This document shows, piece by piece, positions 1 through 44,300 of a stretch of 64,000 bases of DNA. Made by a program: the position numbers and the translations under genes. The notes under the pieces were generated by a model. That model was not told the DNA's origin and ran no database searches. It was given only the letters and a program-made list of their open reading frames with translations. The stretch is from Escherichia coli (GTDB lineage: Bacteria; Pseudomonadota; Gammaproteobacteria; Enterobacterales; Enterobacteriaceae), in NCBI RefSeq assembly GCF_965641715.1, contig NZ_OZ282455.1. One strand, written 5' to 3'. The first letter of the stretch is position 1, and each line of letters starts with the position of its first letter.

Positions 1-390
1 CTCATCTCCCTTTTCTATTGCTGTATGCATATACAGTATTCTAATAACTGAATCCACACACAGTCAAATGTCATTATTGTGACTAAAAAACGCTCAATTC
101 TCTGAGCGTGTGGCTGTATGCCTGCTGTGGACTGCTGTGTCCAGCTTATCCACAGCATTTTGCGCACGGTTCTGTGGACAAAATACCTGGTTACCCAGGC
201 CGTGCCGGCACGTTAACCGGGCTGCATCCGATGCAAGTGTGTCGCTGTCGCCGGCCTCCTCACCCGGTCACGTTTCGTCGTTCCTCCTCCACGCGCTGCG
301 GCTTCGGGGCCGCACCTGCATTCGTATGCGGTCGCCCGGTTACAGGTGCGGCACGGCCTGATGGAGGCCGCATGTGAGAGGAGAATTCCC

Positions 391-1317
391 ATGCCAAACT
401 GGTGCTCGAATCGTATGTATTTTTCTGGTGAACCGGCACAGATCGCTGAGATTAAACGACTGGCCAGCGGCGCAGTCACACCGTTTTATCGCCGCGCCAC
501 AAATGAAGGTATTCAGCTGTTTCTGGCCGGAAGTGCCGGACTTCTGCAGACCACTGAAGATGTGCAGTTTGAACCGTGCCCCGGACTGACGGCTGCCGGA
601 CGTGGTGTTGTATCGCCGGAGAATATCGCGTTCACACGCTGGCTGACACACCTGCAGAACGGTGTGCTACTGGATGAACAAAACTGCCTGATGCTGCATG
701 AACTCTGGCTGCAGAGCGGTACTGGACAGCGTCGCTGGGAAGGATTACCGGACGATGTCAGGGATACCATCACCGCACTTTTCACCGCAAAAAGAGGTGA
801 CTGGTGTGGCTTCTGGAGTAACGAGGATGTATCGGTGTGGTGGAACCGTCTTTGTGACAACGTACTGCCGGAAAAAACCATGCCGTTTGACCTGCTGACG
901 GTTCTGCCCACCCGCCTGGATGTTGAAGTGAATGGCTTTAACGGTGGTGTTCTGAACGGTGTTCCTTCTGCATATCACTGGTATACGGAACAGTATGGCG
1001 TGAAGTGGCCTGTGGGGTATGAGGTGAATATCAGCAGTCAGGGAGACAACTTCATTCAGGTTGATTTCGACACGCCGTGGTGTCAGCCGGAAAGCGACGT
1101 TATTGCAGAATTAAGCCGCCGTTTCAGCTGCACGCTGGAGCACTGGTATGCCGAACAGGGCTGTGATTTCTGTGGCTGGCAGTTGTATGAGCGCGGAGAG
1201 CTCGTTGATGTGCTGTGGGGGGAACTGGAATGGTCTTCCCCGACAGATGACGATGAGCTGCCGGAAGTCACCGGACCTGCGTGGATAGTCGACAATGTGG
1301 CGCATTATGGCGGATGA
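391..1317 (+). CDS. hypothetical leading-region protein (308 aa)
   Basis: Track ORF 346..1317; first ATG at 391 preceded by GAGAGGAG; Cys/Trp-rich; no motif I recognise. Confidence 0.55.
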   Translation: MPNWCSNRMYFSGEPAQIAEIKRLASGAVTPFYRRATNEGIQLFLAGSAGLLQTTEDVQFEPCPGLTAAGRGVVSPENIAFTRWLTHLQNGVLLDEQNCLMLHELWLQSGTGQRRWEGLPDDVRDTITALFTAKRGDWCGFWSNEDVSVWWNRLCDNVLPEKTMPFDLLTVLPTRLDVEVNGFNGGVLNGVPSAYHWYTEQYGVKWPVGYEVNISSQGDNFIQVDFDTPWCQPESDVIAELSRRFSCTLEHWYAEQGCDFCGWQLYERGELVDVLWGELEWSSPTDDDELPEVTGPAWIVDNVAHYGG

Positions 1318-1700
1318 AGTATGACGGAGACGGGCGGGAAACCGCCCGTTTCTTTTCCGACAAAGGATGTCGCCGTGCTCCTCTTTTTACTGCGCCGGCT
1401 GACGCGGCGCGGCATAAACGCTGCCTGTGGTCAGTGTCCCGCGTCCGGCGGGCACGGGACGGGCGCTTTTACCGCTCCCGGCTGGCGTCGGTGACAGTGT
1501 ACGCCAGCCCGTCGCCCTTTTCTGATGAACGCCCTTCAAGCCGCTTTCGCGGCATAACCTCGCCGTCAAAAAGACGACGGCTGCGGTATTCCACGGTCGG
1601 CCTGACCCGTTACCGGACGCGGTGAACAGCCCACAGGCAGCGGGGAACGGGCGCCACAGGGGTGCCCTCCCGGTGCCCTCTGTAAGAGAAGGAGTTTTGT

Positions 1701-2384
1701 ATGTCCCGTTTTATCCAGGGTAACTGCGTGCGTGTTATGGCCACGTTTCCGGGCAATGCTGTCGATTTCATCCTTACCGACCCGCCATATCTCGTCGGTT
1801 TTCGTGACCGACAGGGGCGTACCATCGCCGGCGATAAAACCGATGAATGGCTGCAACCGGCCTGTAATGAAATGTACCGCGTACTCAAAAAAGACGCGTT
1901 AATGGTGAGCTTCTATGGCTGGAACCGCGTCGATCGCTTTATGGCCGCCTGGAAAAATGCGGGATTCAGCGTGGTTGGCCACCTGGTCTTCACCAAAAAC
2001 TACACATCGAAGGCCGCATATGTGGGCTATCGCCACGAATGCGCCTACATCCTGGCAAAAGGCCGTCCACGTCTGCCACAAAACCCGCTGCCGGACGTGC
2101 TGGGCTGGAAATATTCAGGCAATCGCCATCACCCGACGGAAAAGCCCGTTACCAGCCTGCAACCGCTGATTGAGAGCTTCACACACCCGAACGCAATTGT
2201 GCTGGACCCGTTTGCAGGCAGCGGCTCAACCTGCGTCGCCGCCCTCCAGTCCGGACGCCGGTATATCGGTATCGAGCTGCTTGAGCAGTATCACCGTGTC
2301 GGGCAGCAACGCCTTGCCGCCGTGCAACGGGCCATGCAGCAGGGGGCCGCGAATGATGACTGGTTTATGCCGGAGGCTGCGTAA
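1701..2384 (+). CDS. orphan DNA amino-methyltransferase (N6-adenine/N4-cytosine class)
   Basis: DPPY catalytic motif near N-terminus and FAGSGST SAM-binding motif near C-terminus; no restriction endonuclease gene adjacent. Confidence 0.85.
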   Translation: MSRFIQGNCVRVMATFPGNAVDFILTDPPYLVGFRDRQGRTIAGDKTDEWLQPACNEMYRVLKKDALMVSFYGWNRVDRFMAAWKNAGFSVVGHLVFTKNYTSKAAYVGYRHECAYILAKGRPRLPQNPLPDVLGWKYSGNRHHPTEKPVTSLQPLIESFTHPNAIVLDPFAGSGSTCVAALQSGRRYIGIELLEQYHRVGQQRLAAVQRAMQQGAANDDWFMPEAA

Positions 2385-2606
2385 ATGAACTATGCCGGAC
2401 ACGAAAAACTTCGCGCCGAAGTGGCGGAGGTGGCCAATGCCATGTGTGACCTGCGTACAACCATGAATGAGATGGAGCGGCGGTACAGCTTTAATGCTGA
2501 CACCCTGCCGGAACGTCTGGTGCGTCAGACGTTGTTTCGCGCAAACCGCCTCCTGATGGAGGCATATACCGAAATTCTTGAACTGGATGCGTGCTTCAAA
2601 GATTAA
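2385..2606 (+). CDS. hypothetical protein (73 aa)
   Basis: Track ORF; start overlaps stop of methyltransferase gene (TAAATG), suggesting translational coupling. Confidence 0.45.
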   Translation: MNYAGHEKLRAEVAEVANAMCDLRTTMNEMERRYSFNADTLPERLVRQTLFRANRLLMEAYTEILELDACFKD

Positions 2607-2618
2607 GGAGGAGACGAA

Positions 2619-3053
2619 ATGTACGGAACATGCGAAACGCTCTGCCGTGAGCTGGCAGCAAAGTATCCGGGAAACACGCCGCTGATGCTGCTTATCTGGT
2701 CCCCGGAAGAGATTCAGGCACTGGCCGACGGTATGGAAATTTCTCTGACCGATCATGAAATCAGGACTGTCCTGGCGCACCTGGAGGACATCCCGGAAGA
2801 CCAGCGGACTGAGTCCGGTATTTCTTCCGCCGCGGCGATGGAGATTATCAGCAACGTGAGCGAAAACCGCCTGGTGACCGTCCCTGCTGAACTGCTGGCG
2901 TCCCTGATTCAGACCGCTGAACAGGCACTGTGGAAACGTGAATGGGCCGCCCGTGATAACGGCCTTGCCGTCCCGGAATGTGTTACCCGCCGTCAGGCAG
3001 TGATTAATCAGGCCCGCACCCTGCTGAAAAACAACACACACGAAAACAACTGA
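2619..3053 (+). CDS. hypothetical protein (144 aa), paralog of 4762..5184
   Basis: Track ORF with AGGAGG-like SD; shares SLTD.E..TV...L.D and VTVPA motifs with ORF 4762..5184. Confidence 0.6.
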
Positions 3054-3103
3054 TGTTATCGCCGCCTGCCCTGCGGGCGGCGATACAGGGAGAACGCTTA
3101 ATC

Positions 3104-3874
3104 ATGAACAAAACGCTGAATGCACTGGTTTGTCGTCACGCCCGTAACCTGCTGCTGGCGCAGGGCTGGCCGGAAGAGACGGATGTTGACCAGCGAAATC
3201 CGAACTATCCGGGCTGGATCAGCATTTACGTGCGGCTGGATGCGCCCCGGCTGGCGACGTTACTTATCAACCGTCACGGCGGCGTACTGCCGCCGCTCCT
3301 GGCCTCCGCCATTCAGAGACTGACCGGAACCGGGGCGGAACTGGTACTGTCCGGCAGTCAGTGGCAATCGCTGCCGGTACTTCCGGCAGACGGAACGCAG
3401 GTGTCTTTCCCGTATGCCGGAGAATGGCTGACCGAAGACGAAATCAGGGCTGTTCTTGATGCGGTGCACGATGCGGTACGAAGCATCTGTTACCAGGTGG
3501 CAGACGATGCGCGGCGTATCCGTGCGGCGCTGACCACCACCGGTCAGACGTTGCTGACCCGCCAGACGCGCCGCTTTCGCCTGGTCGTGAAGGAAAGCGA
3601 TCACCCCTGCTGGCTCGATGAAGATGACGAAAACCTGCCCGTGGTGCTCGATGCCATCGTGAACCGGGGAGCACGTTTTTCGTCGGTGGAAATGTACCTG
3701 GTCAGCGATTGTATTGAGCATATCCTGTCCAGTGGGCTGGCCTGCGATGTGCTGCGTATACCTGATGAATCGCCCCGCCGCTGGTTTGACCGTGGTGTTC
3801 TGCGGGAGGTGGTCCGGGAAGCCCGGACCGAAATCCGCAGCATGGCGGATGCCCTGGCAAAAATCCGGAAATGA
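3104..3874 (+). CDS. hypothetical protein (256 aa)
   Basis: Track ORF 3053..3874; ATG at 3104 follows a stem-loop (3056..3082) and a GGGAGA SD-like sequence. Confidence 0.55.
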
Positions 3875-3882
3875 TGACACTG

Positions 3883-3905
3883 GCGGGGAAAATCCCCGCC
3901 TTTTT
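3883..3905 (+). terminator. Rho-independent terminator
   Basis: GGCGGGG-aaaat-CCCCGCC hairpin followed by TTTTT directly after stop of 3104..3874. Confidence 0.5.
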
Positions 3906-3932
3906 CCTGCCGGTCCCCGGACAGAGCACAAA

Positions 3933-4270
3933 GGAAGTCGCCGCCGGCTCCGCTTTACCCGGCCATGCAGAGCATGGCCTTGTGGTTTTCAGTTATGTGG
4001 CCTCAGCGTCGTGTGCGGGCTGTGCCGTGCCTCCATCTTAGCCGGGCTGGCGTTGATGCAAGGGTACGCTTCGCCGCTGCGGTCACCCGGTCCCTCCTTC
4101 CCGTCTGCCGTGATTTTCCGGTCGTTCACCCGCTCAGATTTCGCGGTCTCACCCTCCAACTCCCGCCAGCCGTGTGCGTCAGGCTGCGGCTTCCCTTGCG
4201 CCCCTGCATCCCCGCCTTATCGCCCGGCTTTTCTGGAGGCACGGCACCGCCCGGTGTCGCGGAATATGTG
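3933..4270. repeat. dispersed leading-region repeat, family A copy 1 (candidate ssDNA promoter / ssi element)
   Basis: About 340 nt nearly identical to 10878..11218; GC-rich, non-coding, ends about 20 nt before klcA start. Confidence 0.7.
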
Positions 4271-4289
4271 AACAACGGAGGAAAACATC

Positions 4290-4715
4290 ATGCAATATGC
4301 GAAACCTGTCACTCTGAACGTTGAAGAGTGCGACCGTTTGTCTTTTCTGCCTTACCTGTTTGGCCAGGATTTTCTGTATGCCGAAGCGTCTGTATACGCG
4401 CTGGCGAAACAAATGATGCCGGAATATGAAGGCGGATTCTGGCACTTCATCCGCCTGCCGGACGGTGGCGGTTACATGATGCCGGACGGTGACCGTTTCC
4501 ACATGGTGAACGGTGCAAACTGGTTTGACCGTACCGTGAGTGCTGATGCCGCAGGCATCATCCTTACCTCCCTTGTGATTAACCGCCAGTTGTGGCTGTA
4601 CCACGACAGCGGGGATGCAGGACTGACCCAGCTTTACCGGATGCGCGATGCGCAGTTGTGGCGTCACATCGAATTTCACCCTGAATGCAACGCGATTTAC
4701 GCAGCACTGGACTGA
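4290..4715 (+). CDS. klcA: KlcA/ArdB-family antirestriction protein
   Basis: 141 aa; RLSFLP, GGFWHF and C-terminal AIYAALD motifs matching my memory of KlcA/ArdB. Confidence 0.8.
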
Positions 4716-4761
4716 TTAACGGACGGGGCGGCAATGCCGCCCCTGTAAAGGAGACGAGAAC

Positions 4762-5184
4762 ATGTACTGTACTGTTAAAGAAATTATCCGTGATGTACTG
4801 GATACAGACGTGCCGGACAGTGAATGCGTTTTTGCCGTGGTGCTGACCCGTGGGGATGTGCGTCACATAGCCCAGGACTGGAGTCTGACAGACGATGAGC
4901 TGGAAACCGTCATGCAGCGGCTGGACGATGCCTTTGAATATGGTGCGGATGTCAGCGTTGTTCACGGCGTTGTTCGTGAACTGATGGAAGAAAAGCGCGC
5001 CAGCCGTCAGGTGACAGTCCCGGCGGTGATGCTGGAAAAAGTGATGGCGCTGGCAGGCAGTGAAATGAAGCGCCTGTATGCCGTCGGGAGTGAGAACGGG
5101 GGCGACGGTGACGCATTCGTCAGGGAGGAACGCGAAGCAATGGACGTTGTGTTACAGGCGCTGGACGGGGAGACGATGTCATGA
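4762..5184 (+). CDS. hypothetical protein (140 aa), paralog of 2619..3053
   Basis: Track ORF with GGAGACGAG SD; shared motifs with 2619..3053. Confidence 0.6.
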   Translation: MYCTVKEIIRDVLDTDVPDSECVFAVVLTRGDVRHIAQDWSLTDDELETVMQRLDDAFEYGADVSVVHGVVRELMEEKRASRQVTVPAVMLEKVMALAGSEMKRLYAVGSENGGDGDAFVREEREAMDVVLQALDGETMS

Positions 5185-5372
5185 ATATCAGCACAGAAAC
5201 CCGCGAAATTCTGCGCAATTACAAAGCCGTGATTAATGCGCGGCGTCGTGAAATGGGGCAGAAACCGCTCACCACTGCGCAGATTGTTGATGAAATCTGC
5301 GATTTTGTGGCGAATCAGCAGGCGGTTTTCCTCGGTGGTCACTATATCCTTCAGGGCAGCAGAAACAGGTGA
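5181..5372 (+). CDS. hypothetical protein (63 aa)
   Basis: Track ORF; start overlaps upstream stop (ATGTCATGA). Confidence 0.4.
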   Translation: MNISTETREILRNYKAVINARRREMGQKPLTTAQIVDEICDFVANQQAVFLGGHYILQGSRNR

Positions 5373-5411
5373 TACAGGGCAGGCGGTAGAGGCCGCCTGT
5401 CAGCCCGCGCG

Positions 5412-6125
5412 AAAACCCCTGGCAGGCTGACGCCTGCCGGAAATGCGGGGTGCAGCGCCTGCGGCGCTGCCGGCCCGGCTTTCCGGTCAGAAGGTAGTGT
5501 ATGGCTGTATGCAGGGAACAGGTGTGATATTCCGTGACACTGTCACTGTTTCTGGCTGTCTTTTATTGCGCCCACTTCGGCTCCCGGCTGCCTGGCGGCA
5601 TCCGGTCGTCAGGCCCGACTCCGACAGGCAGCTGCTGGCGCACCCGCCAGTCTCCGCCGAACCCGCTGGCGCGGTTTCGGGCTGCCGCTACGGTCCGATG
5701 CGTGAAAACCCGGCTTGCAGCGACCGTTCCGGTCGCGCCGCCCCTGTCGCGCCGTGACCTGCGCTCCCTGCACACCTGACGGTGTGTGAGGAAACTGCGC
5801 CTGATGGCGCAGCAGTCTTCCCTCCTGCCGCCACCCCTGCGGCCTGTTTCCCGCTGTGGACTTTCCGGGGGGCAGACGTAACCCCCTCCCGTTCCATCTG
5901 TCCAGGGTGAGATGCACCGGCCACAAAATTTTTAGCCATGAACCCGGCTAAAAATTTTGCGTCCGCCCCCGGACAGCTGTCCCGTGAGGCGGTAAACGGG
6001 CCCCCATCGGAAAGGTCCACTGCGGGGAGAAACCCCTGTGAAGTGGACGGCAGGAGGAGCTTTCGCTCCTCTGAAGGGGCACATGAACGTCCCGTCGCCG
6101 GTATCCGGTTTATCTCACATCTTTC
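5412..6125. repeat. dispersed leading-region repeat, family B copy 1 (candidate ssDNA promoter / Frpo-ssi-like element)
   Basis: About 700 nt highly similar to 11782..12445; 3' part (about 5745..6125) also shared with 14961..15315; contains AT-rich palindrome CAAAATTTTTAGCC-N9-GGCTAAAAATTTTG; ends at ssb SD. Confidence 0.7.
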
Positions 6126-6140
6126 AGTCAGGAGGTTCTT

Positions 6141-6668
6141 ATGAGTGCACGTGGTATCAACAAGGTCATCCTCGTCGGGCGTCTGGGCAATGATCCGGAA
6201 GTCCGTTACATCCCCAACGGGGGCGCAGTGGCAAACCTGCAGGTGGCCACATCAGAAAGCTGGCGTGACAAACAGACGGGGGAGATGCGGGAGCAGACGG
6301 AATGGCACCGCGTGGTGCTGTTCGGCAAGCTCGCGGAAGTGGCAGGTGAATATCTGTGCAAGGGTGCGCAGGTCTACATCGAAGGTCAGCTTCGCACCCG
6401 TAGCTGGGAAGATAACGGTATCACCCGTTACGTCACTGAAATTCTTGTTAAGACCACGGGCACCATGCAGATGCTGGGGAGTGCACCACAGCAGAACGCT
6501 CAGGCGCAACCGAAGCCTCAGCAGAATGGGCAGCCACAGAGTGCTGACGCGACGAAAAAAGGTGGCGCGAAAACGAAAGGCCGTGGACGTAAGGCCGCGC
6601 AGCCCGAGCCTCAGCCGCAACCGCCGGAGGGGGAGGATTACGGGTTTTCAGACGATATCCCGTTCTGA
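6141..6668 (+). CDS. ssb: single-stranded DNA-binding protein (plasmid SSB)
   Basis: 175 aa; OB-fold N-terminus ([16 protein letters not shown]...), Gln/Pro-rich linker, acidic tail DDIPF. Confidence 0.95.
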
Positions 6669-6686
6669 CTGGCCTGACTGTGATAA

Positions 6687-6959
<273 letters not shown>

Positions 6960-7011
6960 GAGAGGTGCCGGACGCGCGAACGTCCGGCAGGACATAAGCA
7001 ATTATAAGGGG

Positions 7012-8976
7012 ATGATTATGCCTGTAACGAAGTGTGAACCAGAAACCACCCGCAAAGCAAGCCGTAAATCTGCAAAAACGCAGGAAACAGTCCTGTCTGC
7101 CCTGCTGGCGCAGACGGAGGAAGTGAGCGTGCCGCTGGCCTCACTGATTAAGTCACCGCTGAATGTGCGCACGGTGCCGTATTCTGCGGAGTCCGTCAGC
7201 GAACTGGCAGGGTCCATTCAGGGCGTCGGACTGCTGCAGAATCTGGTCGTGCATACCCTGCCTGGTGAGCGCTACGGTGTCGCCGCAGGTGGTCGCAGAC
7301 TGGCAGCACTCAATATGCTGGCTGAGCGTGGAATCATTCCGGCTGACTGGCCTGTCCGCGTGAAAATTATTCCGCAGGAACTGGCGACGGCTGCATCGAT
7401 GACCGAGAACGGTCATCGCCGGGATATGCACCCTGCCGAACAGATTGCCGGATTCCGCGCAATGGCGCAGGAAGGCAAAACAGCGGCACAAATCGGTGAT
7501 TTGCTGGGCTATTCACCCCGCCACGTTCAGCGAATGCTGAAACTGGCAGACCTTGCGCCTGTCATCCTTGATGCGCTGGCAGAAGACCGCATCACCACAG
7601 AGCACTGTCAGGCGCTGGCGCTGGAGAACGACACCGCGCGTCAGGTGCAGGTGTTTGAAGCTGCCTGTCAGTCGGGATGGGGCGGAAAACCGGAAGTACA
7701 GACCATTCGTCGTCTGGTGACCGAAAGTGAAGTGGCGGTGGCGGGGAACACTAAATTCCGCTTCGTGGGGGCTGATGCCTTCTCGCCAGATGAACTGCGC
7801 ACTGATTTGTTCAGCGACGATGAGGGTGGCTATGTGGACTGTGTTGCGCTCGATGCCGCCCTGCTGGAAAAACTCCAGGCTGTTGCAGAGTACCTTCGGG
7901 AAGCTGAGGGCTGGGGATGGTGTGCCGGACGCATGGAGGCCGTTGGTGAGTGCCGTGAAGATGCCCAGGCATACCGCAACCTGCCGCAGCCGGAAGCAGT
8001 GCTGACGGAGGCGGAAGAAGAACGCCTGAACGAACTGATGGCACGTTACGACGCACTGGAAAACCAGTGTGAGGAATCTGACCTGCTGGAAGCAGAAATG
8101 AAGCTGATGCGCTGCATGGCGAAGGTCAGAGCGTGGACGCCGGAGATGCGTGCCGGAAGCGGTGTGGTGGTGTCCTGGCGTTATGGCAACGTGTGTGTCC
8201 AGCGTGGTGTGCAGTTGCGCAGCGAGGATGACGTGGCTGACGACGCTGACCGCACGGAACAGATGCAGGAGAAAGCGTCAGTGGAGGAAATCAGTCTGCC
8301 ACTGCTGACGAAAATGTCTTCCGAACGCACGCTGGCAGTCCAGGCGGCACTCATGCAGCAACCGGACAAATCTCTGGCACTGCTGGCATGGACGCTCTGC
8401 CTGAATGTGTTTGGCAGCGGGGCGTACAGTAGTCCCGCCAGAATTTACCTGGAATGTGGGCATTACTCACTGACCAGCGCTGCGCCGTCAGGGAAGGAAG
8501 GTACCGCATTCATGGCGCTGATGGCAGAGCACTTTCGCCTTGCTGCCCTGCTGCCGGATGAATGGGAACGGGACATGACGACGTTCCTGTCACTCAGCCA
8601 GGAGGTGCTGTTATCCCTGCTCAGTTTCTGCACTGCATGCAGCATCCACGGCGTTCAGACCCGTGAGTGTGGTCACACGTCACGCAGTCCGCTGGACTCG
8701 CTGGAAACCGCCATCGGCTTTCACATGCGCGACTGGTGGCAGCCGACAAAAGCAAACTTCTTCGGACACCTGAAAAAGCCGCAGATTATCGCAGCCCTGA
8801 ATGAGGCAGGACTGTCCGGTGCCGCACGGGACGCGGAGAAGATGAAGAAAGGTGATGCGGCTGAACATGCAGAGCACCATATGAAAGACAACCGCTGGGT
8901 TCCAGGCTGGATGTGTGCACCACATCCACAGACAGATGCCACTGAACGCACCGATAACCTGGCTGATGCCGCCTGA
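7012..8976 (+). CDS. ParB-like nuclease-domain protein (large leading-region ParB/Srx homolog)
   Basis: Track ORF 6928..8976; ATG at 7012 after AAGGGG; N-terminal ParB box (VAAGGRRLAAL) followed by HTH-like segment. Confidence 0.8.
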   Translation: MIMPVTKCEPETTRKASRKSAKTQETVLSALLAQTEEVSVPLASLIKSPLNVRTVPYSAESVSELAGSIQGVGLLQNLVVHTLPGERYGVAAGGRRLAALNMLAERGIIPADWPVRVKIIPQELATAASMTENGHRRDMHPAEQIAGFRAMAQEGKTAAQIGDLLGYSPRHVQRMLKLADLAPVILDALAEDRITTEHCQALALENDTARQVQVFEAACQSGWGGKPEVQTIRRLVTESEVAVAGNTKFRFVGADAFSPDELRTDLFSDDEGGYVDCVALDAALLEKLQAVAEYLREAEGWGWCAGRMEAVGECREDAQAYRNLPQPEAVLTEAEEERLNELMARYDALENQCEESDLLEAEMKLMRCMAKVRAWTPEMRAGSGVVVSWRYGNVCVQRGVQLRSEDDVADDADRTEQMQEKASVEEISLPLLTKMSSERTLAVQAALMQQPDKSLALLAWTLCLNVFGSGAYSSPARIYLECGHYSLTSAAPSGKEGTAFMALMAEHFRLAALLPDEWERDMTTFLSLSQEVLLSLLSFCTACSIHGVQTRECGHTSRSPLDSLETAIGFHMRDWWQPTKANFFGHLKKPQIIAALNEAGLSGAARDAEKMKKGDAAEHAEHHMKDNRWVPGWMCAPHPQTDATERTDNLADAA

Positions 8977-9030
8977 TGAACAACCACACCGCCCCGCCGG
9001 AGACGGGGCGGCAGCAAGGGAGATACCGTG

Positions 9031-9465
9031 ATGAAAACTGAACTGACCCTGAATGCCCTGCAGTCCATGAACGCACAGGAATATGAAGATATCCGTGCTG
9101 CGGGAAGCGATATGCGCCGTAATCTCACTCACGAGGTGATGCGTGAAGTGGACGCACCGGCTAACTGGATGATGAATGGCGAGTATGGCAGTGAGTTCGG
9201 GGGCTTTTTCCCCGTCCAGGTTCGTTTCACGCCAGCCCACGAACGTTTCCACCTGGCATTATGTTCGCCGGGAGACGTCTCTCAGCTCTGGATGCTGGTT
9301 CTGGTGAATTGTGGTGGACAGCCTTTCGCCGTCGTTCAGGTGCAACATATCTTCACGCCTGTCGCTATCAGTCACACGCTGGCGCTTGCCGCGACACTTG
9401 ATGCGCAGGGGTACAGTGTTAACGACATCATCCATATCCTGATGGCAGAAGGAGGTCAGGCATGA
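9031..9465 (+). CDS. psiB: plasmid SOS inhibition protein PsiB
   Basis: About 144 aa; [27 protein letters not shown]... matches PsiB as I recall it. Confidence 0.95.
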
Positions 9466-10877: not shown

Positions 10878-11218
10878 GGAAGTCGCCGGCGGCTCCGCTT
10901 TTACCCGGCCATGCGGGGCATGGCCTTGTGGGTTTTCAGCTCTGTGGCCTCAGCGTCGTGTGCGGGCTGTGCCGTGCCTCCATCTTAGCCGGGCTGGCAG
11001 GGATGCAAGGGTACGCTTCGCCGCTGCGGTCACCCGGTCCCTCCTTCCCGTCTGCCGTGATTTTCCGGTCGTTCACCCGCTCAGATTTCGCGGTCTCACC
11101 CTCCAACTCCCGCCAGCCGTGTGCGTCAGGCTGCGGCTTCCCTTGCGCCCTGTGCATCCCCGCCTTATCGCCCGGCTTTTATGGAGGCACGGCACCGCCC
11201 GGTGCCGCAGAACATGTG
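10878..11218. repeat. dispersed leading-region repeat, family A copy 2 (candidate ssDNA promoter / ssi element)
   Basis: Near-identical to 3933..4270; ends about 18 nt before ardA start. Confidence 0.7.
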
Positions 11219-11236
11219 ACTATGGAGGATTCGGGA

Positions 11237-11781: not shown

Positions 11782-12445
11782 GAAAACCCTGGCAGGCTTA
11801 CGCCTGCCTGAAATGCAGGAGGGCCGCGCCTGCGGCGCTGCCCTTCCTGCCCGTCATGGTGTGAGGCATTTTTCTGTTATGTCGTTTCTGTTGTTCTGAT
11901 TTCCGGAGGCGGGGACACCTTCGGCTCCCGGCTGCCTGGCGGCATCCGGTCGTCAGGCCCGACTCCGACAGGCAGCTGCTGGCGCACCCGCCAGTCTCCG
12001 CCGAACCCGCTGGCGCGGTTTCGGGCTGCCGCTACGGTCCGATGTCTGAAAAACCAGGCTTGCAGCGACCGTTCCGGTCGCGCCGCCCCTGTCGCGCCGG
12101 AAACGGCGCTCCCTGCACACCTGACGGTGTGTAAGGCCACTGCGCCTGATGGCGCAGTCAACCCTTCCGCCGCCACCCCTGCGGCCTGTTTCCCGCTGTG
12201 GACTTTCCGGGGGCTGGAGTAACCACATCCCGTTTCAGCAGTCTAGGGGAAGATATACCGTCCACAAAATTTTTAGCCATAAACCCGGCAAAAAATTTTG
12301 CGTCCGCCCCCGGACAGCTGCCCCGTGACGTGGTGACGGACGCCCCATCGGAAAGGTCCACTGCGGGGAGAAACCCCGAAGAAGTGGACGGCAGAAGGGG
12401 CTTTCGCCCCTCCGGGGAGCAACCGGTCGGCCCGGCGACCTGATT
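11782..12445. repeat. dispersed leading-region repeat, family B copy 2
   Basis: Similar to 5412..6125 over about 660 nt; ends at SD of ORF 12466. Confidence 0.7.
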
Positions 12446-12465: not shown

Positions 12466-12900
12466 ATGACAGTCAGCAGCACGATTTCCGTTTTTTGCCG
12501 CGACGGGGTGTTCCGTACCGTTTACTGCCACCTGCACGGGGAGCCGACCTGGAACGGTCGCATCCTGCATACCCACTATGCCACCGGTCAGCAGGCCGAA
12601 GCCCTGGTTGAACACGGTGATATCCGTTGCCTCGGTCCCCGTTGCGACAAACCCGCCGGGCATACGCTTCAGAACCCGGTGGACGGTGTGACGGCTTATT
12701 ACGGACGTGACAGTGGTTTCCGGATGGACAGTGAGGCGCGTGAGTACCGTTCTTTCAGGGAGGCTATTGCCACTGAAAGCACTGAAGAGGTGCGCTTCCA
12801 TTATGTGTTCATCGACGGCTACTGGAAGGTGATGTACCGCACGCCGGAAGGCTGGAAGATGAAAGCGCTCGCGCTGGCACTGCGTCGCTGTCCGAAATGA
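12466..12900 (+). CDS. hypothetical protein (144 aa)
   Basis: Track ORF with GAAGGAGA SD; immediately downstream of family B repeat; hairpin after stop. Confidence 0.6.
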   Translation: MTVSSTISVFCRDGVFRTVYCHLHGEPTWNGRILHTHYATGQQAEALVEHGDIRCLGPRCDKPAGHTLQNPVDGVTAYYGRDSGFRMDSEAREYRSFREAIATESTEEVRFHYVFIDGYWKVMYRTPEGWKMKALALALRRCPK

Positions 12901-14855: not shown

Positions 14856-14960
14856 TTTTGCTTGTAAATGTCGTGCGGTTTTCTCTGTTTTCACCTGTGC
14901 GGGAGTGGTGTGCCAGTGACCACCACATGCCATTGTTGTGCCGTCGTTTTTCTTCAGTCG

Positions 14961-15315
14961 CGCCGTATGCGGCGCTCCCTGCACACCTTACGGTGTGTAA
15001 GGCCACTGCGCCTGATGGCGCAGCTGTCTCTGCCTGTCTGCCGCCGCACTGCGGCCTGTTCTCCGCAGACGGACTTTCCGGGGGTACATACATGACCACA
15101 TCCCGTTTCAGTCGTCCAGGGGAGAGATGTACCAGCCACAAAACTTTTTGCCGCAGGCGTCAAAAACTTTTGCGTCTGCCCCCGGACAACTGCCCCGTGA
15201 CGTGGTGAGCGTCCCCCGTCGGAAAGGTCCACTGCGGGGAAATCCCCGAAGACCCGGACGGCAGAAGGAGCTTCGCTCCTCCGGGAAATGACCTGGCTGA
15301 CCCGGCAGTCGTGAC
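14961..15315. repeat. dispersed leading-region repeat, family B copy 3 (3' unit only)
   Basis: Matches only the 3' about 355 nt of copies 1 and 2; ends at SD of ORF 15330. Confidence 0.65.
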
Positions 15316-39303: not shown

Positions 39304-40287
39304 TTACTCCAGTTCTGGTGTCACGTGAACGGACTGGCCATTCACAGAGAAAGTCAGTAGTGGGGTGACGGGAAGTTTCCAGAGATGAGTTCCGTCGGCA
39401 GAGGACAAGGTCTGTTCAAATTCATCGCGCAACATCGCCCGGGAACGAACCAGTAGGTCATCGCCGTGTTGCCAGATCGTTGTATCCGGGACATTACCTG
39501 TGAATTTCAGCCTCTTAACTGAAGGGTCCCGGGGAGGAATACCATCCAGAAATGCCTGTAATGTTGCATCATGCAGGGCGATTTTATCCGTCGGGATGGA
39601 GACAACCGGGCTGGTTGGTCCCTGCCGTGGTATTCGCAGATCCAGACGACTGTCCATTTCCTGACTGGATGACGGCGTATCTGTTTCGCCACTGGTTACG
39701 TTCAGGATGACCGGTACCGACAGACCTTTCAGGTAGACAGAAATGTTTCCGGATGCCCATGGCCGCAATGGTGTGATTGTCACCATGTTCTCGTTGTACT
39801 GCACATCAAAGAGTTTTGGTGCCGCGTTATAAGGAGGATCGGATTGTGGCCATGGTGAACCGTTGATATCGGTAAATGTCACTACGCTCAGGTTGTTCAT
39901 GGCTGTGCGAACAAGAGGAAGGCTGGCACCGGGGGACAGATTAACTGTCAGAGAGCTGATACGGGGTACAACACTGGTGATGGGCGCATTGATGGCCCGC
40001 TCGTTATCCGCCATGAGACTGCGTAGTGAGCGAATCTCATCGGCGGAGAGCTCAGAATCAAGTCTTGCCGCATCCTGTACCAGCGGGCTGGCCTGCCCGG
40101 GGGCAGGCAGCTCACCTTTTACCAGTGTTGCCGGAACACCTCCGGTGTTTTGGGAGGCGTTCTGAACGTGATCGCTGGCAGAATTTGTCGTTTGTGGTGT
40201 GCGTGCGTTCTGCCATCCTGCGTTATCTGCAGACGTGGCGGCGCTGCACACCAGGAGCAGTGTGCTCAGTAAATAACGTGATTGCAT
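39304..40287 (-). CDS. traN: conjugal transfer protein TraN
   Basis: 327 aa with signal peptide; synteny. Confidence 0.7.
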   Translation of the reverse strand: MQSRYLLSTLLLVCSAATSADNAGWQNARTPQTTNSASDHVQNASQNTGGVPATLVKGELPAPGQASPLVQDAARLDSELSADEIRSLRSLMADNERAINAPITSVVPRISSLTVNLSPGASLPLVRTAMNNLSVVTFTDINGSPWPQSDPPYNAAPKLFDVQYNENMVTITPLRPWASGNISVYLKGLSVPVILNVTSGETDTPSSSQEMDSRLDLRIPRQGPTSPVVSIPTDKIALHDATLQAFLDGIPPRDPSVKRLKFTGNVPDTTIWQHGDDLLVRSRAMLRDEFEQTLSSADGTHLWKLPVTPLLTFSVNGQSVHVTPELE

Positions 40288-41351: not shown

Positions 41352-44300
41352 TCATCGGCCGGGGCTGTGGGAGAGATCCTGATGCAGAGTTTTTTCCTGC
41401 CTGTCCTCCGGCTTTTGGCTGTTGGACCACTGCTGCCATGACTGCTCGAAGCCCAGGTTCCGGTACAACGCATCAGGTTGTTTTTCCGGCGTGTAGACAG
41501 CAGCAAAAAGCGGTTCTTCCCGGGTTTTCAGATGAAACTGCATAAGCTCCGGTGCGGGGCGATTCGTGCTGTCAGCATCGTGGTTTACCGCTTCACCATA
41601 ACCTGCAAAGCGTAAACCTTTGTCGGTCAGCGCATTGATAACCAGCTGACTGTTGTCGGCTGATGGGGTGGCCAGTGCCGGATACAATGTGCCGTTCAGC
41701 CGGACCACACCCTGCAGATGTTCATCGGCACTCTGGACAAGTAGCAGGTTGAGTTCACGCGTATCCTTATCCACTGATCCCAGAACAGGTGTCAGCTTGT
41801 CAGGGGCTGCGCTGGTTATTTCTGTTACCTGATTTGCGTTCTGTGGCGCGGAGACCGGATGTCGGTCTTCACCGATAAACAGATGTGAGCCGACGTTTTC
41901 TGGCATACGTAACGTTTTCATCTCTTCGGGCCACCCCTGGCTGATTTGCGCAGCCACTTTCATAAAGGTTTCGACCGGAATCGCCTGAATACGCTGACCT
42001 TTATCCGGATTATCATGTGATACCGAGATCCCGTTGGTAACTGACTCCATGGACCACTTATTCCGGAAACGTGCTTTTTGCTCTCCCGGGAGGATGAATT
42101 GTTCGCGGTTCTGAAGTGTCAGTGTCACCACGTCACCTTTCTGATGGTTTTTGACCAGACTTTCCAGTTGCTCCCCCCAGTAGAGTTTGCTGCCACTGCG
42201 GTTTTTAAGCTCAACAAAGAAACTCTCTCCTTTGCCGGGTGCATATTCAGCACGACCAAAATTGTGCAGTACGGCAGTCACGCTCTCTCCCGGGCGAAGT
42301 TTTCCTGGTGGTTCTTCACCTTGTGCCGCATCTGCCGTTTTGCCAGGTTCAGCCGGTGATGATGCAGGGACGGTGCTGACGGTTGATGCTTCAGGGGCTA
42401 TTGGGGACGCCGGGGATTGTGTGGCTTCTTTTTCCTGAACAGGGTCTGGGACTGCTGGTTGTTCAGGGGTATTCCGGTTAAGTTCCGGTGTTGGCTTATG
42501 GGTGACAACAGCATCCTTACTGACAGCCATTTCCTTGCGTAATTTTTCTAGTTCAGCCCGTTGATCTGGCAATTTCATCCGGACATCGATGTTGTGCTCG
42601 ATAATCAACTGCATTGCTTTTTGCTTAAAGGCATCACTGCCCGTCAGCTCTATGACGCCCCCATAAAATTTGGTGGCCACAGCAAGTGCGGCCAGAACGC
42701 TGCGATCGTCATTGCTGGCACCGTTGACCATTTCCAGCCGGTTTACCCGGTCAATGAAGGCAGGTTTGCCATCCAGTTTGTACAGGACGGTTCTGTCTGC
42801 TCGTTTTTCCCAGTCGAGCTCTTTAAGAATTTCGTCCATGTTGAGCGATATCGGTGCATCAGAACGTTCCGGGGCGTAGACAATACTGTCAGGTATCGGT
42901 GGAGTCGTCGTGGTTTCCGCTGAGGGCGTGGGATCACTGTTCTCATGTGCCTGTGAATCCGTTTTTTTACGCGTAAAAAAGCCACGCGCTTTGTCGAGAA
43001 ACGATGAAGTATTATCAGAAGGTGATGTGCTCTGAACAGGTTGCTGTGGAGTGGGTTCATCCCGGACAGCCGGTTCTGCAGTATCTGTTGTGGCCTGAAG
43101 TTCTGACTCATCTGCCTGAACGTGGTCTGTGTCCGGTTGCGACGGCATATCACTGTTTTCCTGCAGATGCTCAGGATTTTCATTGTTCATCAGCTCCTGA
43201 TATGCGCTGTAGTTTTCGTATTCTTCGGGGCCATCTGACTCAGGAAGGAACGGCTCTGGCTGAAGGGGAATGTCTTCAGTTACATGGTTGACCGCCTCTT
43301 CCCGGGGAGTATCCGGGGATATTCCGGTGCTTTGTTTGTCATCAGGCTCCGTCATCACGGTCATTTCCTCTTTGACTGCATCAGGGGAAGGTGATGGCTC
43401 GGCTGATTCATTCATGGTTTCAGATGAGGGACTGTCTTCAGGGGATGCGGGGGCGGCAGCAGGGGCCGGTATTTCAGGTGAAGTGCCGGATTCCTGTTGT
43501 GACTCGTTTTTTTCCGGTTGTGACAGTTCGGCTTCAAATTCACGCCAGTCTTTATCTGTGGCCACCGAGACAACTTTTTCCGGAGGTTCCGCCGGATGAG
43601 CGGGTTCATCAGGGGCAGATGCCGTTGTACTTTCCGGGGACGCCGGTGATTCTGCAGGGGAGTCCTGAACTACAGAGCTTTCCGTTTGCGCCTGAACGTT
43701 ATCAGCGTGCCGCTCATCTTTGCCGTTATTTTCAGTGGCGTGACTGGTAAATGACTGTGTTTCATCAGCAATGTTACTGCTGGAAGCAGCTGGTTGTTCC
43801 TGCTGCGTGGCGGACGGCAGAGAAGGTCCCTGGTCATGGCTGTGCCCTGTATCGGGTGATGTTTCAGGATATTCTGTCGGAGTCATGGTTTTTTCCTCAG
43901 TGTGGACCGGTGTAAAAACGAGGTTGCCGATCACCAGTGCCTCGCGGATTTCCGGGGTGTTACTGTTGGGGGTGGAAACCCCGATGTGTTCTAACTGGGC
44001 GTTGATGACATGCTGAAAAGCGGCCCGTCCCCGGCTTGCGTCCAGGTCATTGAAATCGGTCAGCCCCTGCGCTTTTTCGGCATCGGTGAACGCAGGAAAG
44101 ATGACCGTTCCTCCTGTCAGTTCTGCGGCTTTTGTTGCACTGACGATACCTTTGTTAACCCGGATTGCATGATCGTTGTCGGCACAGAAGATAAAGGGGC
44201 TTTGCGTCCACTTTTGCCGGGCATTTTCGGCAACGGCAATCATGTTGCCTCCATCCACCGTCATCAGTACCGGAAGGCCCGTGGCTTCGTGCAGGGAGGC

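Follow-up and report, generated by a model that had tools for sequence, protein, structure and literature searches.

The DNA analyzed here, a 64,000-nucleotide stretch of Escherichia coli contig NZ_OZ282455.1 which we refer to as the window, contains two small genes on either side of the gene for the anti-restriction protein KlcA. The two genes, here called ORF1 and ORF2 (ORF, open reading frame), encode acidic proteins of the DUF1380 family (Table 1). Positions 1 to 9000 of the window were 100% identical to the E. coli plasmid pRKI3099a (NZ_MN124285.1) from record position 40234, which has been typed as IncI-gamma/K1, MOBP, and MPF_I, and more than 5000 plasmids in PLSDB matched the same segment at 90% identity or more. 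The window represents the leading region of a conjugative plasmid of the IncI type, that is, the part that enters the recipient first. At one end of this region is an operon for a umuDC-type DNA polymerase V (imp-like, the genes of which are labeled impA and impC in a related plasmid record), followed by a DUF1281 gene and the methylase operon. The gene order then continues with the DNA methylase gene, a gene for a protein of 73 amino acids, ORF1, a gene for a protein of 256 amino acids, klcA, ORF2, and a gene for a protein of 63 amino acids. Beyond the latter, toward the origin of transfer (oriT), are ssb, a DUF905 gene, a ParB-like gene, psiB, psiA, and ardA, and further away nikA and nikB. 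All of the leading-region genes are located on the plus strand and are therefore templated by the transferred minus strand, and because oriT is situated near 16.5 kb, ORF2 enters the recipient ahead of ORF1.

Both ORFs start with an ATG codon preceded by a strong Shine-Dalgarno sequence. A preliminary description of the locus, made from the nucleotide sequence only, had pointed to the similar length and acidity of the two products and to the motifs that they share, and these statements held up. The products carry net charges of -9 (ORF1) and -16 (ORF2), and they have in common the sequence VTVPA and a motif of the SLTDxEIxxVL type, the ORF2 counterpart of which is SLTDDELETVMQRLDD. The paralogy that the description had suspected was also borne out. 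The two proteins were aligned by BLASTP with an E-value of 1e-7 and 24% identity over 116 amino acids, and their Smith-Waterman score of 84, which none of 2000 composition-preserving shuffles attained, compared with a mean of 29.3 (SD 5.3) for the shuffles (z 10.4). An hhalign comparison of the alignments of the two subfamilies gave a probability of 95.4% and an E-value of 1.7e-8 over 100 columns, and a search of 1.84 billion proteins recovered intermediate sequences that bridge the two groups, with an alignment that is collinear along the full length. The idea that the similarity reflects chance or composition, as between two unrelated acidic helical proteins, would be in line with the identity of just 22% to 24% and with an ORF2 score 2.5 bits short of the Pfam gathering threshold, but its probability is negligible given the shuffle test, the hhalign result, and the linking sequences, which rule it out. 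ORF1 and ORF2 are thus shown, at the sequence level, to be anciently diverged paralogs of the DUF1380 family (PF07128). A hidden Markov model of the family detected exactly two copies in the window and no third paralog; the ORF of 144 codons at positions 12466 to 12900 is not a member. The relationship between the two genes is already known, in that RefSeq labels both as "DUF1380 family protein".

Two observations concern the individual genes. In the pRKI3099a record, ORF1 is intact (positions 42852 to 43286) yet lacks an entry in the PLSDB gene table, where tag RS00270 is skipped, and the full-length matches to ORF1 in several other RefSeq plasmids were likewise listed under "none". This probably reflects a pseudogene flag or an absent protein accession, and not a real defect in the gene. 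Within ORF2, a tandem unit of 12 nucleotides, GTTGTTCACGGC / GTTGTTCGTGAA, which encodes VVHG/VVRE, was found at positions 4957 to 4980. The database variants of the ORF2 protein, with lengths of 136, 140, and 144 amino acids, differ solely in how many copies of this unit they contain, a pattern suggestive of a slippage polymorphism within a tolerant stretch of the protein.

The ORF1 protein matched the PF07128 profile from position 1 to 137 of 137 (E 1.6e-50), above the gathering cut-off of 26 bits, whereas the ORF2 protein matched positions 1 to 102 with a score of 23.5 bits (E 6.4e-5). Some variants of the ORF2 protein with 144 amino acids have a precomputed PF07128 match, the distant KlcA-adjacent members match the profile weakly or in full, and 27 of the 30 members in a combined alignment of both groups gave a match. 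The phage orthologous group phrog_9024 was matched by both proteins (E 3.4e-70 for ORF1 and E 1.2e-5 for ORF2). Both are single-domain proteins within the range of about 135 to 145 amino acids and are plasmid-borne in Enterobacterales. The ORF1 protein is a full-length, high-scoring member that does not differ from DUF1380, while the ORF2 protein represents a divergent subfamily of the same size, with the same Enterobacterales plasmid hosts and the same leading-region position. Its C-terminal 40 residues differ, with a GGGD loop and an acidic tail where the WxxEW..ARD..PVPE motif would otherwise be. No meaningful match to either ORF was obtained in NCBIfam or PADLOC, and a tblastn search with both proteins in the phage collection gave no match.

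The two genes are abundant in plasmids although the family as such is not diverse. Each of ORF1 and ORF2 was found in at least 5000 PLSDB plasmids from Escherichia, Klebsiella, Salmonella, and Shigella, whereas the profile search of the 1.84 billion proteins with both groups combined recovered just 276 representatives at 50% identity, which indicates that DUF1380 is a small and narrow family. The RefSeq/PGAP name "DUF1380 family protein" is given to both genes in pESBL-EA11 as well as in IncF, Enterobacter, and Pectobacterium plasmids. Older names are YubF, YceB, YcgB, and YfcB for the ORF1 type and YubJ, YcjA, YcgC, and YfeC for the ORF2 type. In the supplementary table of a survey of leading-region genes, the two are listed as separate, uncharacterized families that are both significantly enriched in leading regions and that occupy ranks 7 and 14 in size (Samuel et al. 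2024, PMC11541004). The 3957 members of family 7 are located at a median distance of 19 genes from oriT, and the 3145 members of family 14 at a median position of 15, beside KlcA at position 16. It was also noted that hundreds to thousands of DUF1380 proteins, for example one of 139 amino acids, are labeled "adenine-specific methyltransferase", including in UniProt names. Since no Pfam methyltransferase domain was identified in ORF1 or ORF2, and PF01555 is present in the true methylase of the same operon, this label was apparently transferred from the M.EcoGIX-type gene next to them.

An AlphaFold model of the ORF1 protein was built from a diverse alignment of 30 sequences, after an earlier model from a shallow alignment (predicted local distance difference test score, pLDDT, of 64.7) had been discarded. 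The model (pLDDT 86.4, predicted template modeling score 0.58) is all-helical, with seven helices arranged in an N-terminal domain at residues ~1 to 82, a conserved R-x-V-T-V-P-A linker, and a long C-terminal helical hairpin at residues 90 to 142. The two groups are alike over the first ~100 residues and divergent in the C-terminal hairpin. Only M1, L12, G67, R84, V86, and L93 were near-invariant across the 30 members, which contained no conserved constellation of catalytic residues, and the acidic isoelectric point (pI) was kept in all of the orthologs compared. No relative with a solved structure was identified, and neither the sequence nor the fold searches of the Protein Data Bank (PDB) gave anything that resembles the whole protein. 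The sequence searches, for which we used both proteins and the family profile, yielded nothing significant other than one de novo designed protein and weak matches to calmodulin, and the only notable fold match was an uncharacterized Erwinia jumbo-phage protein of 92 amino acids, which resembles the N-terminal domain.

An EF-hand or calmodulin-like fold was considered and rejected. Residues 37 to 67 gave matches with E-values of 0.04 to 0.8, along with low-probability fold hits, and there were no conserved calcium ligands: in both ORFs, positions 1, 3, and 6 of the canonical loop D-x-D-x-D-G-x-I-x-x-x-E are occupied by residues other than acidic ones or glycine, and the family alignment shows no conservation at these positions. 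Kinship with the neighboring KlcA/ArdB proteins was not found either, as judged from PF03230 (no match), the Smith-Waterman comparison (z -0.1), and the fold matches, which included no KlcA/ArdB protein. Nor did the Pfam, PDB-sequence, and fold searches give any match to the DNA mimics ArdA and Ocr, and the acidity of the DUF1380 proteins is only suggestive as a sign of DNA mimicry.

The preliminary description had placed both ORFs around a klcA module. Their positions on either side of klcA are correct, but the gene for the 256-amino acid protein and a hairpin intervene between ORF1 and the repeat region upstream of klcA, and ORF1 belongs to the methylase operon, the end of which is marked by the terminator-like hairpin ahead of the klcA promoter repeat. 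The locus contains two separate transcription units and not one module. Operon 1 spans positions 1701 to 3874, with genes that abut or are 12 to 50 nucleotides apart, and operon 2 spans positions 4290 to 5372.

Table 1. Features of the two operons with DUF1380 genes and of their upstream regions in the window.
Feature	Position	Strand	Evidence and remarks
Hairpin region upstream of the methylase operon	1318..1700	-	Minus strand -109.3 kcal/mol, z -6.5 versus shuffles; counterpart of pESBL class 3
Orphan DNA methylase, M.EcoGIX homolog, first gene of operon 1	1701..2384	+	PF01555, E 1.3e-40; 91% identical to pESBL M.EcoGIX
YubE-family protein, 73 aa	2385..2606	+	phrog_4830; PF27407 in precomputed annotations; starts directly after the methylase stop codon
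ORF1, DUF1380 paralog I (YubF/YceB/YcgB type)	2619..3053	+	144 aa, pI 4.76; PF07128 at 171.2 bits, full length
256-aa protein (YcfA/YchA/YubG type), last gene of operon 1	3104..3874	+	phrog_8919, E 3.7e-136
Terminator-like hairpin and T run, end of operon 1	3882..3900	+	GGCGGGGAAAATCCCCGCC followed by TTTTT
"Repeat A", class 2 single-stranded-DNA promoter region preceding klcA	3984..4271	-	Another copy precedes ardA (10931-11219)
KlcA/ArdB anti-restriction protein, first gene of operon 2	4290..4715	+	PF03230, E 2.2e-26
GC-rich stem-loop in the klcA/DUF1380-II spacer	4725..4743	+	GGGGCGGC-AAT-GCCGCCCC, -18.4 kcal/mol, no U tract
ORF2, DUF1380 paralog II (YubJ/YcjA/YcgC/YfeC type)	4762..5184	+	140 aa, pI 4.32; WP_058647586.1, DUF1380 family protein in NZ_MN124285.1
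Basic 63-aa protein (YffA type)	5181..5372	+	ORF list and sequence; pI 9.62; start overlaps the DUF1380-II stop codon (ATGA)

In operon 1, PF27407 (YubE) was present at the matching position in all of the distant loci examined. The gene for the 256-amino acid protein was absent from some related plasmids, two of which were among these loci. Its start is annotated at position 3104, and the phrog_8919 match begins at residue 19 of a longer ORF. At residues of about 105 to 125, this protein contains a stretch that resembles the SLTDxEIxxVL motif of both DUF1380 paralogs (LT[DE]xEIxxVL), with a Smith-Waterman z-score of 5.4 against ORF2 and BLASTP E-values of 0.013 to 0.023. The hhalign comparison of the 256-amino acid protein with DUF1380 gave a probability of 19% over 21 columns only, and shared ancestry is therefore not established. 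A segmental duplication of whole operons was rejected as the origin of the two paralogs, no other gene pair being similar across the operons apart from this short motif.

In operon 2, a stem-loop follows the klcA stop codon and precedes the Shine-Dalgarno sequence of ORF2. Hairpins with different stem sequences were found at the equivalent spot in five divergent plasmids, which suggests a conserved intercistronic RNA element, for example a stability element or an attenuator, that sets the ratio of KlcA to the ORF2 product, DUF1380-II. The basic 63-amino acid protein, which judging from the ATGA overlap is translationally coupled to the acidic DUF1380-II protein, matched no family in Pfam, NCBIfam, PHROGs, or PADLOC. 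It is probably a member of the uncharacterized leading-region family 6 ("YffA/AreA"), which has 4048 members (Samuel et al. 2024).

Both operons are on the strand templated by the incoming transferred strand (T-strand), and each is preceded by a long hairpin in that strand. The minus strand of positions 3950 to 4289, which include repeat A, folded with -81.8 kcal/mol (z -3.9), the direct repeats D1 and D7 recorded for repeat A are 94% to 98% identical, and both hairpin regions are 96.6% identical to their counterparts in pESBL-EA11. In a study of pESBL (PMC12672017), RNA sequencing of transconjugants at 15 minutes revealed up to ~500-fold induction of six leading-region operons, including those of M.EcoGIX and klcA, and transcription starts were mapped to the hairpins by rapid amplification of 5' cDNA ends. 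The same study assigns the single-stranded-DNA (ssDNA) promoter of M.EcoGIX to class 3 and those of klcA and ardA to class 2. Judging from the operon structure, the DUF1380 genes themselves would be induced as well. A search of both strands between positions 1200 and 6300 (5.1 kb) gave no sigma-70-like promoter consensus, compared with 1.7 expected from shuffles, which is consistent with operons that are silent in duplex DNA. A second repeat family was represented by three copies, which precede ssb (5575 to 6071), the ORF at position 12466 (11919 to 12412), and a gene situated near 15.3 kb (14916 to 15217). These repeats correspond to the ssi/Frpo-type (class 1) ssDNA promoters of IncI plasmids.

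To describe the genomic contexts of the family, we combined eight exact-protein look-ups of distant members with BLAST searches of plasmids. The layout around distant members was always the same: N6_N4_Mtase, YubE, and DUF1380, followed with or without a gene of ~257 codons by Antirestrict (KlcA) and a DUF1380-like gene. A neighbor-joining tree of 33 sequences contained two clades, with all of the methylase-adjacent proteins in one (clade I, with ORF1) and all of the KlcA-adjacent proteins in the other (clade II, with ORF2). The clade I gene followed the PF01555 and YubE genes in 12 loci, the clade II gene followed the PF03230 gene in 12 loci, and plasmids of Enterobacter (260 records) and of Pectobacterium yielded divergent versions. 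The association with anti-restriction genes proposed in the preliminary description was thus seen in all contexts examined. That description had also suggested a duplication of a small-protein family, and the duplication stands, although not as a recent local event. The paralogs within one plasmid were only 20% to 28% identical in every plasmid examined, which together with the two context-matched clades indicates that the duplication predates the diversification of this plasmid backbone and that neither copy has since left its operon.

The Pectobacterium parmentieri plasmid pPAR01 differed in two respects. It contained a third DUF1380 gene, of 125 codons (8190 to 8564), which separates klcA from the clade II gene, and the latter (8614 to 9210) was fused in frame to the homolog of the gene for the 63-amino acid protein, giving a product of 199 amino acids. 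This was the sole fusion of its kind that we saw, and it hints that the DUF1380-II and 63-amino acid proteins act together. Long fusions such as YubE-DUF1380, KlcA-DUF1380, and DUF1380-YcfA were discarded as Rosetta-stone evidence, being singleton deletions, frameshifts, or chimeras.

The ratios of nonsynonymous to synonymous substitutions in pairwise comparisons with the pESBL and IncF orthologs ranged from 0.23 to 0.35 for DUF1380-I (the ORF1 product) and from 0.10 to 0.29 for DUF1380-II, compared with 0.10 to 0.18 for KlcA, 0 to 0.08 for YubE, and 0 to 0.14 for PsiB. These values mark the DUF1380 genes as genuine genes that evolve under purifying selection, with a constraint that is among the more relaxed in the region. 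In the distant plasmids, the amino acid sequence identities to the window versions decreased from 70% to 84% for the methylase to 53% to 55% for YubE, 40% to 46% for KlcA, 33% to 37% for DUF1380-II, and 24% to 31% for DUF1380-I, and the DUF1380 proteins are thus the fastest-diverging members of the module. In a transposon sequencing (TnSeq) study of pESBL (PMC4288162, Table 2), the DUF1380 orthologs Hp10 and Hp12 received a score of 1.00 ("non-essential") with respect to both maintenance and transfer into E. coli K-12, as did M.EcoGIX, KlcA, and PsiB. M.EcoGIX mattered only when the recipient contained a restriction system.

The identity and paralogy of the two genes, their organization in two operons, and their prevalence are firmly supported, and on this basis we infer a mechanism in which the DUF1380 proteins act by binding, in anti-defense or establishment. 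With moderate confidence, we lean toward the reading that the two paralogs belong to two ssDNA-promoter operons and act early in the recipient as non-enzymatic, conditional anti-defense or establishment binding proteins. Under such a scheme, ssDNA promoters on the incoming T-strand would fire within minutes of entry and the DUF1380 proteins would be made in the new host during this early burst. Each of these acidic, helical, and non-enzymatic proteins would bind a protein target, with one paralog specialized beside the methylation arm and the other beside the KlcA arm of anti-restriction, and neither would be needed for plasmid maintenance or for transfer to a permissive host. An anti-defense or establishment binder provides the best fit to proteins that are small, acidic, helical, and without conserved catalytic residues, and that are probably expressed early, conditionally dispensable, fast-diverging, and encoded in two anti-restriction operons.

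Several points weigh against this reading. Synteny with a single partner as strict and stable as this is seen more typically for accessory subunits than for independent anti-defense genes, and known anti-defense genes tend to have a patchy distribution. The membership of the DUF1380 genes in the operons was deduced from gene spacing and from the description of the operons in the pESBL transcription study. The neighboring leading-region protein YfjB/HerB has been reported to reprogram host physiology, not to counter defense (PMC13370423), and a full-text literature search for DUF1380, YubF, and YubJ retrieved no functional study.

The main rival is that the DUF1380 proteins are partner-specific accessory factors with no host target of their own, DUF1380-I for the ssDNA methylase, perhaps with YubE, and DUF1380-II for KlcA, which we consider rather improbable. 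Such a role would explain why each paralog is found next to the same partner in all of the Escherichia, Enterobacter, and Pectobacterium plasmids examined, and why the genes within each operon are closely spaced. However, the low identity of DUF1380-I in the same plasmids in which the methylases are well conserved is hard to square with a tight, co-evolving complex, and the conserved hairpin between klcA and the clade II gene suggests unequal expression and not 1:1 co-production. Moreover, M.EcoGIX is reportedly active from artificial constructs, ArdB/KlcA cloned alone is said to alleviate restriction in vivo, and KlcA/ArdB genes without DUF1380 occur in IncP and IncN plasmids.

Less probable again is a function in establishment that is unrelated to defense, with the proteins binding to the host replication, repair, or transcription machinery and serving in the conversion of single-stranded to double-stranded DNA or in host reprogramming. 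The early ssDNA-promoter context would be the same, and there is a precedent in YfjB/HerB, a leading-region protein with a non-defense function (PMC13370423). The action of M.EcoGIX has also been linked to PolI-dependent replication, according to another report (PMC7736820). On the other hand, the DUF1380 genes were dispensable for transfer to and maintenance in K-12, the immediate neighbors both have anti-restriction functions, and the fast divergence fits a variable target better than a conserved replication machinery.

Two further readings are unlikely. The proteins could be Aca-like transcriptional autoregulators that shut off the anti-restriction operons when these are no longer required, and their location just downstream of an anti-defense gene in a strong transient operon does resemble the acr-aca layout. 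We regard this as highly unlikely since the window proteins had no helix-turn-helix or ribbon-helix-helix match in Pfam, with a weak RHH_5 match in only 2 of the 30 family members (E 0.032), no DNA-binding fold was matched, pI values of 4.3 to 4.8 and net charges of -9 to -16 are unfavorable for DNA binding, and shut-off is already explained by the loss of the single-stranded promoter upon conversion to duplex DNA. A toxin-antitoxin-like pair, in which the acidic DUF1380-II protein neutralizes the overlapping basic 63-amino acid protein, is still less plausible despite the ATGA overlap, the contrasting pI values of 4.3 and 9.6, and the fused pair in one Pectobacterium plasmid, because transposon insertions in Hp12 were fully tolerated (an argument weakened by polar effects downstream), the 63-amino acid protein matches no toxin family, and DUF1380-I has no such partner.

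Returning to the reading of the DUF1380 proteins as early anti-defense or establishment binders, a bolder version of it seems to us possible rather than probable, namely that DUF1380 is an unrecognized class of plasmid anti-defense proteins in which each paralog neutralizes a different barrier that its neighbor cannot handle alone. For example, DUF1380-I might shield incoming DNA with promiscuous N6-methyladenine from methylation-dependent (Type IV) restriction, and DUF1380-II might broaden or supplement the action of KlcA on Type I or other systems. If so, DUF1380 would be a major determinant of plasmid host range, since thousands of IncF and IncI resistance plasmids contain both genes. The pair is located in what is probably the most widely disseminated anti-defense island of Enterobacterales resistance plasmids. 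The finding reveals no new entity and restates the existing annotation. The question is nevertheless sharpened, in that two families listed separately are one family, with an ancient operon-specific split and with the greatest divergence within the module, and the operon-specific pattern of the two clades provides a clear genetic design.

Among known systems, YfjB/HerB resembles DUF1380 in that it is conserved and zygotically induced, comes from the leading region, and long went uncharacterized, but it is a ParB-like, DNA-associating protein of another family, and no evidence links DUF1380 to transcription. The Aca regulators have the same layout, with a small conserved gene directly downstream of an anti-defense gene; given that the DUF1380 proteins lack a helix-turn-helix and are strongly acidic, Aca-like regulation by DNA binding is unlikely. 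KlcA/ArdB and ArdA are, like the DUF1380 proteins, small and acidic, encoded on the side templated by the T-strand, and dispensable for transfer to K-12, and they share with them early expression in the recipient from ssDNA promoters, which for DUF1380 is deduced from the operon structure. As a working model, we take the SOS inhibitor PsiB, which is unrelated in sequence to DUF1380 but has a similar size of ~140 amino acids, is zygotically induced, and acts purely by binding a host protein, RecA.

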